From the IMG/VR virus record IMGVR_UViG_2907128583_000005, positions 64,001-128,000 of that record: a DNA stretch of 64,000 nt. One strand, written 5' to 3'. Source of the DNA: a virus (Duplodnaviria > Caudoviricetes). The position numbers and the translations under genes were made by a program. Below, in pieces: positions 18,730 through 57,130 of this stretch (position 1 is its first letter; each line of letters opens with the position of its first letter). The notes beneath the pieces are model-generated. The model ran no database searches. It saw only the letters and a list, made by a program, of their open reading frames with translations, and was not told the DNA's origin.

Positions 18730-20386
18730 TTATTTTGTTTCTCTATATTCTTCTATAAATAATTGGAGTGTTTTAGTTACTTTGAATTTTGGTCTATAAA
18801 CTTTCCATACATTTATATTTAATGTTCCAATTGCTTCAATCTCACTAAAGACTGGAACACTTTTATAGTAATTTACGTCAGTCTTAAACTTCATAAGCTG
18901 AAGCTTGTCGCAGTCAATTTTAACGGTGTTGTTGGACTGGCCAATCAACTTCTTATCTGACACAAATAGCCCTTTAATAAGAAATCTACCCTGTTTGAAT
19001 TTATTACCTGTGATCCGATAGAATTCAGAAAGATAGTTGATTAGATTTTCGTTTACCTGATTGATGTCAAATTCAAGGTCATAATATAATGAATTATCTG
19101 CAACAAAATTCTGAAGCTTTCCGTTAAGCTCTTGACGTAATACTTCAATGTCTTTTTTCAACAATTGAAGACCACCAGCTCCATCATGTCCACCTGTATA
19201 AATAACGCTATTGCAATCACCAAGCATATCTAACATTGAAAAATCTTCTAAGCCTCGAAAGCTTCCTGCATATGTATCCTCACTGTCTCCATTACCAAGT
19301 ACAATTGCTGGCCTACTATATGTTCTGGACAGTTCTTGCGCTACTAGTCCATTCATACCTTTTCCAAGAGTATGATCAATAACAATAACAACTTTGTCGT
19401 TTTCATTTACTAAAGGTTTTAACCTAATTAATGCTTCAGCTTGTACTGTTTTTCGTCTTTCATTTAATCTAATCAAATCTTTAACCAATAATTTAATCTC
19501 TGGACTGTCCTCGTCGCACATCAGAAAATCTATAGCCAACTGAATATTGTCTGCTCTCGTGGCTGCTGTAACGGCAGGGCTTACTCCGTATAAGAAGTCT
19601 GTTGCTGAAAGGTTGTTTAAATCAAAGTTCATAGCTGCAAATAATACTTTTAATCCTGCATGACGCAATCCCTTCAAGGATAGTTTCGCAAAATATCTAT
19701 TCTCTAACTCTATCATTGACATCATGTCTGCCATCAATGAAAACCCCGGCAAGTCAGATAATTGATGTGCATAATGTGTATTCATGTAATCATCAATTAC
19801 CTCGCAAACTTTGAACACAAGTAATCCACCACAAGCATTTTTATTTGGATATTTACATCCTTCTTGCTGAGGATTCACTATAATCGCATAGGGATTATTG
19901 TTAGTAATGGTATGATGATCAATAATTAAGCAGTCAATACCTTTATCAACCAATGCCTTCATCGATTGTGTATCATTACTTGAACTATCTACAGCAATAA
20001 ACAACTTTGTTCGTTTAGGAATTGAATCAATTAAATTATTGATCGAGTGACCTTCGCTTCGTTCATTGCATACATAATGTACATCGTCTGTGAAATTTTT
20101 TAGATACTTGTATAGTAGTACTAATGATGTTACGCCGTCATAATCCTAACTAATCAGGATCTCCAGAAATCGTAATTGTTTCACGACTTCTTATTGCAAG
20201 TATGATTCGTGTTGCTAGTGCATCTATATTTTTGAGTAGGTATGAATTGCATATTACATTTGTCAATGGGTTCAAGAATTGATCAATATCTTCGATACCA
20301 TTGATTTTAGCCAACTTACCATATGTATTGTCGTATGCTTCAAACGGAATTTTGGGTTCTCTCTGTTTCCATCTCAATACCTTCAT
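18730..20386 (-). CDS. RecJ-like DHH/DHHA1 ssDNA exonuclease (SPbeta YorK-like), interrupted by a 10-nt insertion at 20143-20152
   Basis: Part 1 ends ISGDPD*; the shifted frame resumes YDGVTS...ERSEGH...IAVDSS...IIDHH...GSFR...GGHDGAGG. Removing 10 nt gives motif I GDPDYDG and one 548-aa protein. Confidence 0.9.
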
Positions 20387-21251
20387 TCTCCTTATCTCGT
20401 AACCTTCCAGTCATTTGTAAATATTTTTTATTTTTTCTTGTTAAATATGTATTGGATTTATCATACAAATGATTTAGTATTTTTGGCACTTGTTCATTCC
20501 CACAATAAGATAAACCTCTGCAATATCCATCTCTACCCTCATTTCGTATAGAGAGCTTTGGTGTATGATTTGTAATTCCCACTTCAACAAAATAATTTGC
20601 TATAATAGTACATATCTCTTCGTATGTTGTAAACTGCACTCTCGCTTTCAGTCTCTTTTTAGATCGATCACAAACGTATCCGCACATAATTGATCCATCA
20701 GCATCTAAGACTCCTCTAATAAAATGCCTAATGAGATGTTTTGGTAGTTTATCAACAATCTTTTTAGTATTATGTCGGTTTGCAACTAAACCGTAGTCGT
20801 TGTGTAGTTTTCCTGCAAAGTACTTATTAGAAATATATAGCCTCACTACATCTTGCGCATTATCAAAATTACTTTTAAGCTTATACTTTTTTATTGTGTA
20901 ATTTGCCTCTAAACTAATTTTTAGTTTTTCTAAATGCTCCCTATCCTCTTCCGCTAAGTCCAACTTAAACTCGTAATAACAGATCCCATTTCTAACTCTA
21001 CTGCAAACATATCCGTCGCACCAAATAAACCCCAACCAATAAGCCTTATCTTCTGAGTCTATTTTATCGAAATAATTCTTGTTGAAACTGTAGATGCTAC
21101 CATTCTGCCTCGCTTGAATATTTGATTCTTTAAACCACCTATCCAGCACCTTGCTGTCTCTAATATTGAATATCTTTTTTATTTCATTTTTTGGCTTTCC
21201 TTGTTCATACAATTTCCTCAATAATTCTGGAGTACATCCTCTGTCTGCCAT
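20340..21251 (-). CDS. free-standing LAGLIDADG homing endonuclease
   Basis: Two motifs, AYWLGFIWCDG and HFIRGVLDADGS; ends with YLTRK; no intein splice motifs seen; possible ATA start at 21275. Confidence 0.9.
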   Translation of the reverse strand: MADRGCTPELLRKLYEQGKPKNEIKKIFNIRDSKVLDRWFKESNIQARQNGSIYSFNKNYFDKIDSEDKAYWLGFIWCDGYVCSRVRNGICYYEFKLDLAEEDREHLEKLKISLEANYTIKKYKLKSNFDNAQDVVRLYISNKYFAGKLHNDYGLVANRHNTKKIVDKLPKHLIRHFIRGVLDADGSIMCGYVCDRSKKRLKARVQFTTYEEICTIIANYFVEVGITNHTPKLSIRNEGRDGYCRGLSYCGNEQVPKILNHLYDKSNTYLTRKNKKYLQMTGRLRDKENEGIEMETERTQNSV

Positions 21252-21448
21252 ATGGATTTTGTTTGAAGGTTCTATATAATCACTCCTTGTACTTCTTTAT
21301 TGAATACTTATTTTGAATTTTTCAGGTAGTGTAATTTTAAGGTTATTGTTAATTGCTTTCATAAAACTATAAGTGAGATACCTATTCTCTCTTCCTGTCT
21401 GTTTATTTACGATTTTGATATTCACCATATCAATCACTCCAGTTCAGG

Positions 21449-57053: not shown

Positions 57054-57130
57054 TGGTGGGTCTTGAGGGATTTGAACCCCCGACCAATCGGTTATGAGCC
57101 GACCGCTCTAACCAACTGAGCTAAAGACCC
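57054..57130 (-). tRNA. tRNA-Ile2 (anticodon CAT, lysidine type)
   Basis: GGGTCTTTAGCTCAGTTGGTTAGAGCGGTCGGCT-CAT-AACCGATTGGTCGGGGGTTCAAATCCCTCAAGACCCACCA; full cloverleaf, encoded CCA; body resembles Bacillus tRNA-Ile2 rather than Met. Confidence 0.9.

Follow-up and report, generated by a model that had tools for sequence, protein, structure and literature searches.

The window analysed here, a 64,000-nucleotide (nt) stretch of DNA, covers positions 64,001 to 128,000 of the IMG/VR record IMGVR_UViG_2907128583_000005, a 218-kb provirus record, and carries on its minus strand a recJ gene whose reading frame is interrupted by ten extra bases inside the first catalytic motif. The upstream part of this gene (N-part; 20150..20386, minus strand) is an open reading frame (ORF) of 78 codons counted from the ATG at 20386, instead of which the gene caller starts at the TTG at 20377; it ends in ...ISGDPD and is then closed by a TAG. 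Across the junction the minus strand reads GGA GAT CCT GAT (20155-20153) TAG (20152-20150) TTAG (20149-20146) GAT (20145-20143) TAT GAC GGC. An earlier reading of the window, below called the original prediction, had proposed that ribosomes bypass these bases between a GAU that directly precedes UAG and an identical GAU 10 nt downstream, and the layout it described is exactly what the strand shows. The presumed take-off codon, GAT at 20153..20155, encodes the second Asp of the GDxDxDG motif (motif I). It is followed by a putative untranslated gap of TAG plus TTAG (20146..20152) and by the candidate landing codon GAT (20143..20145), after which decoding would resume at TAT (20142-20140). The downstream part (C-part; 18730..20142) comprises 470 codons and a stop, and the frame of the second GAT is accordingly open for 471 codons, up to the stop at 18732-18730.

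In a Pfam search the C-part matched DHH (61.3 bits), RecJ_OB (31 bits) and DHHA1, the last with an E-value of 1e-4 and 23.1 bits, which is under the 25.9-bit cut-off of that family. The predicted GDPD-YDG join with 470 further open codons was thus recovered, with this one domain match falling short of its threshold. When an intact relative was aligned to the solved RecJ chains 8y30, 5f54 and 2zxo, its isGDpDfDG lay over GDyDaDG, and the extra bases of the window therefore separate the second Asp of motif I from the residue after it. These matches identify the gene as one of the RecJ/DHH phosphoesterase type, in which the predicted motif I is whole in the window solely if the gap is skipped. 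Ordinary recoding does not achieve this. In the upstream frame a TGA stands as the fourth codon after TAG, in agreement with the prediction that read-through would fail to rescue the 10-nt form, and in the downstream frame a second TAG immediately precedes the landing GAT, so that a simple +1 shift at the stop is blocked as well; neither event joins the two halves. A reassigned TAG or a suppressor tRNA was also considered and rejected: TAG closes 31/156 long frames and is an ordinary stop in this provirus, and tRNA-Met is the sole tRNA gene encoded in the provirus record, where no suppressor tRNA was found. The original prediction had further stated that the insert is not a simple tandem duplication. 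One correction applies to its description: the 10 nt can also be written as GATTA-GTTAG-GATTA, with a 5-nt direct repeat on both sides.

The insert was also looked up in public assemblies. One contig from each of three public runs spans positions 19700-20700, and all three are identical to the window there, with 0 other letters, 0 gaps and no joint. One of these runs (X2) is a DNA run and possibly the source of the record, and the remaining two (X3 and X4), each from another study, are RNA libraries, whose contigs give no proof of transcription and hide rare variants. The identity of the three contigs rules out an assembly artefact as the source of the insert.

The insert is not restricted to this provirus. 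Among 26 distinct recJ relatives read as DNA, seven (the window included) carry it at the same codon boundary, four in a 10-nt and three in a 9-nt version, and the six other carriers are diverged, with 68-78% amino acid (aa) identity. After the GAT take-off codon, the window, L012 and L013 read TAG TTAG GAT and L015 reads TAG TTAA GAT (10 nt each); L027 reads TAG TTA GAC, L019 TAG CTA GAC and L014 TAG CCA GGC (9 nt each). The GAU take-off codon and the UAG at the 5' edge are thus invariant in 7/7 genes, the remainder of the gap varies (TTAG, TTAA, CTA, CCA, TTA), and the last triplet can pair with tRNA-Asp in 6/7 (GAU in four, GAC in two, GGC in one). The 9-nt forms do not have the GATTA repeat. 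In viral contigs, the 10 nt are absent from all four closest relatives (83-95% aa identity in the C-part), and two contigs found with a degenerate pattern carry the identical insert at just 77-78% aa identity, with synonymous differences in the adjacent codons. An alignment-based scan of viral contigs returned 11 loci, five of them with the insert, and a scan of metagenomes returned at least two loci, with one more insert-bearing gene, L027 (68% aa), among the matches listed. No 9-10-nt insert was found in genome contigs and GTDB genomes; a first scan of the genome contigs with peptide patterns specific to the window found no relative, and neither the 401 genomes of the family nor those of two additional genera (7 and 74 genomes) yielded any new insert-bearing locus. 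Four loci from a scan with a variable-gap pattern (L041, L043-L045) were discarded as chance matches that are not recJ.

Public protein data extend this picture. All 15 stand-alone N-part ORFs found there end at GDPD; 13 come from other genomes, and several belong to named Paenibacillus species. About ten further C-part protein calls start just past the junction. One of these calls, P0003, has the insert translated in the other frame, implying yet another 10-nt variant. For P0003, P0004, P0007, P0008, P0010, P0012, P0013, P0025, P0038, P0060 and P0017 the insert status was judged from the N-termini alone, and P0017 and P0060, which lie outside the clade of insert-bearing genes described below, may be ordinary miscalls. 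The residue at position -10 from the take-off codon (20186-20184 in the window) is Arg in 15/15 insert-bearing N-parts, and the four relatives that were read as DNA and have no insert show His there; this could be a nascent-peptide signal, shared descent or hitch-hiking. The label 'SPbeta-like' given to the phage in the original prediction proved loose: these phages have Paenibacillus hosts, named phages gave no match in a near-identity DNA search, and the nearest named phage RecJ proteins are less than 37% identical.

If the insert inactivated these genes, relaxed selection and additional stops would be the hallmarks, and neither was seen. Across the seven insert-bearing genes, the ratio of nonsynonymous to synonymous substitution rates (dN/dS) of the N-part was 0.02-0.10 in the 16/21 pairs for which it could be computed. 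For the C-part it was 0.05-0.07 in the three pairs that allowed this, and the other 18 pairs had saturated dS with a dN of 0.13-0.24. No further stop was present in 7/7 genes. The alignment of related recJ genes that had been proposed as a check thus showed the insert retained with purifying selection on both of its sides (dN/dS 0.02-0.10), and the opposite outcome, an insert unique to this isolate in a decaying gene, is at odds with its presence in six diverged relatives whose two halves are both constrained. Third-position variation reached both edges of the gap: counted at the first, second and third codon positions, the last ten codons up to and including take-off have 2/0/9 variable sites, and the eleven codons that begin with the landing codon have 2/2/11. 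The eight codons that follow the gap (YDGVTSLV) showed synonymous changes only in the seven sequences, with no start codon before them, which argues against a separately initiated C-part. In addition, homologous inserts are one base apart in length, with both halves conserved, so that the gap cannot be decoded in ordinary triplets.

In a tree of 76 C-parts, 7/7 verified inserts and 9/11 truncated calls fell into a single 27-row clade (Shimodaira-Hasegawa-like approximate likelihood ratio, SH-aLRT, 96), whose basal branches are insert-bearing and within which 11 intact genes are nested. The simplest history that these sequences suggest has the insert gained once, long ago, and later lost precisely or replaced several times.

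We then asked whether RNA structure accompanies the gap. The original prediction had placed the stop in the loop of an 8-bp stem (GAUCCUGA/UUAGGAUU), and this fold-back (20142..20161, minus strand) is indeed present in the window, with 8 bp including two G-U pairs, a 4-nt loop and -7.5 kcal/mol (z -2.26; 3/200 shuffles as good). It is not conserved. In the relatives 79% of the cells pair, there is no covarying pair, synonymous changes break the stem, and in 6/6 relatives the stretch folds no better than shuffles, so that we rejected this hairpin as a conserved signal. A take-off stem-loop whose 5' arm holds the take-off codon thus occurs in the window only and is not conserved among insert-bearing genes. 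Neither a Shine-Dalgarno-like GGAG upstream nor an AGGA in the gap is conserved in the alignment of the site (A4). Rfam had no family at the gap site. The alternative raised originally, that the insert is the collapsed P1 remnant of a group I intron, found no Rfam match at the site and no intron family in the window at the gathering score. At this score, the only Rfam match in the window (1-64000) was tRNA-Met (57057-57130); the earlier reading had mentioned two real introns.

A different structure emerged downstream. RNAalifold predicted a 13-bp stem (A4 columns 96-108/133-145) that begins 16 nt past the first base of the landing codon in six relatives. Of its 91 cells, 87 pair, and the four unpaired ones all belong to the window. 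Three pairs show compensatory changes, two of these being double synonymous changes in L015; the covariation score was matched by 1/500 shuffles, and slid controls paired in 26-56% of cells. The minimum free energy (MFE) of the stem region ranged from -11.9 to -21.5 kcal/mol in the six relatives, as compared with -1.9 to -10.2 in 12 insert-less genes; insert-less relatives do not have the stem. Among 300 synonymous recodings, none folded as well as the natural sequence in 5/6 relatives (L015: 30/300), and the corresponding counts were 119/300 for the window and 28-246/300 for four insert-less relatives. The spacing of this stem matches that of the forward slippage barrier of T4 gene 60, which sits at the ribosome's front edge as the landing codon enters the P site (10.1101/2022.08.31.505936). 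By analogy, we infer that the downstream stem would act as such a barrier on landing.

The exceptional state of the stem in the window is explained by the sequence around recJ. The start of recJ is overlapped by a free-standing gene for a 303-aa protein (20340..21251, minus strand) that matched PF14528 with 24.9 bits (cut-off 22.5) and has an orthologue in L027 (26.2 bits); we conclude that it is a predicted LAGLIDADG homing endonuclease. It lies within a cassette of ~906 nt (20372..21277) that replaces ~11 nt of relatives without the endonuclease, just past the old recJ ribosome-binding site (AAGGAGTGATT), and that is absent from the four closest relatives. In the insert-bearing L027, a 304-aa orthologue (56% aa identity) occupies the same insertion point. 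The recJ sequence that begins at the cassette, includes the insert and ends 41 nt beyond the gap (20101..20371) is of a foreign donor type, being 71-88% identical to the insert-less L009 and L011. From 42 nt past the gap the identity to insert-less phages rises sharply to ~99%, and the following tract (19667..20100) is near-identical to L009/L011, with five mismatches to L009 between +42 and +397. A single foreign tract thus comprises the endonuclease gene, the N-part and the gap, and the gene is L009-like for the rest. Such a pattern is expected where a cut near the gap starts homing with co-conversion, which is how we think the tract arrived. Its end falls between the two arms of the downstream stem: the 5' arm (20118..20130; A4 columns 96-108) is donor-type sequence and the 3' arm (20081..20093; columns 133-145) is recipient-type, L009-like sequence, which accounts for a stem that is broken in the window only.

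Some other features of these genes were recorded alongside. The mosaic continues further on in recJ, with mismatches becoming dense again after the L009-like stretch (+42 to ~+475). N-parts are far more diverged than C-parts even among insert-less relatives (dS 0.89 vs 0.17 for L009 vs L010). The insert-less L009 (2255-2290), L010, L011 and L018 have no ATG, GTG or TTG near the recJ ribosome-binding site AAGGAG, the frame running through ATA, and in the window this AAGGAG now precedes the endonuclease cassette (upstream of 21277).

A scan with an alignment of the endonucleases returned 47 distant loci, in three of which (L057, L068 and L093) recJ lies directly downstream. In L057:3501-5568 and L068:3501-5568, endonuclease homologues with 30% aa identity stand upstream of recJ-like genes whose motif I is uninterrupted (VDSDPDG). 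In L093:3471-6231, the recJ gene (27% aa) is interrupted precisely at the boundary of VDCD and CDG by a mini-intein of ~130 aa (Pfam Intein_splicing, E 5e-13), and a truncated 176-aa homologue of the endonuclease, resembling helix-turn-helix/LAGLIDADG proteins, lies directly upstream. Different elements thus interrupt this codon boundary next to members of one endonuclease family, which by its sequence matches recurrently adjoins phage recJ.

Altogether, these data are consistent with the view, which we consider likely, that the 10 nt are a conserved coding gap skipped by ribosomes in a natural short hop of tRNA-Asp. Peptidyl-tRNA-Asp would sit on GAU (20155-20153) with the slowly decoded UAG in the A site until its anticodon releases. 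The mRNA would then slide by 10 nt (9 nt in some relatives), the same tRNA would re-pair with the GAU or GAC that ends the gap, and decoding would resume at UAU, giving one RecJ-type nuclease of 548 aa with the metal-binding motif GDPD|YDG intact. In the older insert-bearing lineages the 13-bp stem would meet the mRNA entrance as the landing codon enters the P site and so serve as a stop or ruler for the slide. The gap would lie within the recognition site of the adjacent putative LAGLIDADG endonuclease and thereby shield carriers from cleavage, a role for which the mini-intein of L093 at this boundary is the one piece of indirect support; and the endonuclease gene, the recJ N-part and the gap would have entered an insert-less phage by homing-type gene conversion ending 41 nt past the gap. 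Because that recombination split its downstream stem, the window copy probably hops less well than its relatives. On a broader reading, to which we lean with somewhat less assurance, the phage recJ hop cassette is old and 9-10 nt long, has a selected 13-bp stem that sets the landing register, and constitutes a second, independently evolved combination of an endonuclease with a bypass element, one that is far less complex than T4 gene 60 and operates on Gram-positive ribosomes, with a mini-intein taking its place elsewhere at the same boundary. The comparative evidence supports a bypass well for the family. Of the original prediction, the bypass reading is strongly backed by comparison, the stem-loop, specific to the window, is not supported, and the assignment to SPbeta-like phages is loose.

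Several observations weigh against this interpretation. The single polypeptide made from two frames is itself deduced from the DNA. Unassisted stop-hops in Escherichia coli occur at ~1 percent or less, and the output could thus be low. The gap of L014 ends in GGC, with which the anticodon of tRNA-Asp could pair only through a central G-U. The link to the endonuclease is incomplete, as the latter is absent beside recJ in 5/7 insert-bearing loci, and in four complete insert-bearing phage genomes no member of its family was detected at E <=0.001 in a search run with a positive control. The association of the stem with the insert comprises few independent contrasts, the four insert-less in-clade relatives read as DNA being one subclade. 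In the window itself the stem is degraded (9/13 pairs form; MFE -5.9), and since recombination produced this copy recently, the fact that it has not decayed carries little weight on its own. Finally, retention of the insert in the contigs of both RNA libraries (X3 and X4) has to be read with the reservation that DNA carry-over is possible and that rare variants are dropped from contigs.

Some of the same points bear on the most serious rival, namely that the insert inactivates recJ in this prophage, having been dragged in with the endonuclease or left as a cleavage-resistant scar, so that the gene is a young, undecayed pseudogene in which hopping is negligible. The recent recombination, a downstream stem that folds no better than synonymous recodings, the absence of the insert from the four closest relatives and the predicted status of the full-length product would all fit, as would the recJ-like gene that related host genomes hold of their own (second matches, 24-25% identity). 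We nevertheless regard this as unlikely. The same type of insert persists in six diverged relatives with dN/dS <=0.10 on both sides and saturated dS, which indicates that across the family it does not inactivate the gene; GAU-UAG and the matched GAU are both preserved in the window; and the 5-nt direct repeat would ease a precise loss, yet the insert was kept in three independent assemblies. The gene could alternatively yield two polypeptides, an N-part of 75-78 aa ending in GDPD and a C-part from an internal start, which would assemble non-covalently without any hop. Gene callers do report both pieces, an ATG lies ~10 codons past the gap in five relatives, and T4 gp39/gp60 offers the example of a split enzyme beside a homing endonuclease (10.1101/2022.08.31.505936). 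Against this stands YDGVTSLV, whose eight codons precede the first possible start, vary only synonymously in the seven sequences and hold part of motif I (DG). Moreover, an ATG is missing from this place in L015 and in the window, whose first in-frame start is the TTG at 20004, 47 codons in, and alignment A4 contains no conserved ribosome-binding site. A two-polypeptide arrangement thus appears very improbable.

Removal of the insert from some DNA or RNA molecules, for instance by slippage on the GATTA repeat, would provide a repaired template for normal translation, and we give it marginally less credence still. The 10-nt form does have the flanking 5-nt repeat, and insert-less genes nested among insert-bearing ones in the tree mean that precise losses occur over evolutionary time. 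The 9-nt forms have no such repeat, however, and contigs of one DNA run and two RNA libraries showed neither gap nor joint at the site, albeit that contigs hide rare variants. Least probable of all, to the point of being negligible, is a rescue by read-through, a suppressor tRNA or a single +1 or -1 frameshift. The gap preserves the frame in the three 9-nt variants, where a ribosome reading through UAG would make the whole protein with three added residues, but these would fall inside the metal-binding motif. The 10-nt forms meet UGA four codons on in frame 0 and UAG in the +1 frame before the landing codon, and the provirus provides no suppressor tRNA; for the 10-nt form of the window, the sequence excludes read-through and frameshifting.

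The known system closest to the tRNA-Asp hop that we favour is the bypass of T4 gene 60 with its MobA cassette (10.1101/2022.08.31.505936; PMC5009743). Shared with it are the matched take-off and landing codons, the UAG right after take-off, and a homing-endonuclease gene just upstream, with a cassette that moves together with its co-conversion tract. Like the recJ gap, that of gene 60 lies at invariant catalytic residues of a phage DNA enzyme, and gene 60 likewise has a stem at the ribosome's front edge on landing (degraded for recJ in the window). The same two sources document MobA/gene 60 cassettes that lost the endonuclease and retained the bypass, as well as GAU/GAC take-off and landing pairs; the recJ family has in common with some MobA lineages that the endonuclease is lost and the gap kept, and with some MobA cassettes the tRNA-Asp GAU/GAC pairs. 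The differences are as marked. The recJ gap measures 9-10 nt as opposed to 50 nt in gene 60, there is no conserved take-off stem-loop and no space for an internal Shine-Dalgarno sequence, the host gene is recJ instead of a topoisomerase gene, and it is not split into two genes with added tails. The phages, too, are different, being Paenibacillus siphophage-like prophages. Furthermore, the recJ case is known from sequence alone, and no homology to the gene 60 cassette was seen, nor was a search aimed at it made. MobA belongs to the HNH family, whereas the endonuclease beside recJ is LAGLIDADG by Pfam.

The closest mechanistic precedent, by analogy, is formed by the synthetic stop-hops in E. coli (Weiss et al. 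1987, via PMC5009743 and 10.1101/2022.08.31.505936), in which peptidyl-tRNA leaves the codon before a stop and, independently of frame, re-pairs with a matching codon some bases further downstream. There, 9 nt are used for one residue (codon-stop-codon), as compared with 12-13 nt in recJ, and the recJ gap is natural and conserved and comes with a selected downstream stem. According to PMC5009743, no natural in-frame stop-hop is known, and the terminase of Streptomyces phage Hau3 is an unproven hop candidate. Hau3 and recJ have in common a short coding gap in a phage gene for which a hop is proposed and unproven; the former is proposed to depend on the rare Streptomyces UUA codon and to be regulatory, whereas recJ uses a stop and is tied to a homing endonuclease. 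A further parallel is collaborative or trans homing (PMC2790892, PMC2988022), with a free-standing endonuclease beside a gene whose conserved site holds a small element that would block cleavage, in those systems an intron or intein that lacks an endonuclease of its own. L093 would be the intein version of this at the same recJ codon boundary, and the recJ gap differs from it in being spliced from neither RNA nor protein, so that the ribosome must handle it. The byps of Magnusiomyces capitatus mitochondria (10.1101/2022.08.31.505936) are also short disruptive inserts that are bypassed to give functional protein, with some mismatch on landing tolerated. However, these are 27-55 nt long, number 81 copies, spread like GC clusters, have an unused sense codon in the A site and are handled by mitochondrial ribosomes, whereas in recJ a bacterial ribosome meets a stop codon and a gap of 9-10 nt at a single site. 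No paper pairing translational bypassing with RecJ was found among Creative Commons-licensed PubMed Central (PMC) papers and bioRxiv.

Beyond T4 gene 60 and its homologues, and the byps of yeast mitochondria, programmed bypassing is nearly unknown, and shorter natural counterparts have, according to PMC5009743, long been expected and not found. The recJ family would therefore be a compact natural system for studying what a hop requires: a cassette of ~80 nt with 9- and 10-nt variants, a near-cognate landing variant and, in the window, one copy with a split stem. The site would also display convergent answers to the conflict with homing endonucleases, a hop gap in one lineage and an intein in another, by which a conserved target is shielded while the enzyme is kept. 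In practice, gene callers annotate these recJ genes as two products, a truncated DHH protein and a 'hypothetical protein' of 75 aa.

One other recJ relative departs from the usual reading frame at this motif. L035:1480-1520 (genome G053, C3), with 60% aa identity, has a single extra T, reading GAT CCC T GAC TAC GAT. The resulting context, CCC_UGA_C, is of the classic type prone to +1 shifts, and both halves of the gene are open; the extra T could be the site of a programmed +1 frameshift, the mark of a pseudogene or an assembly error.

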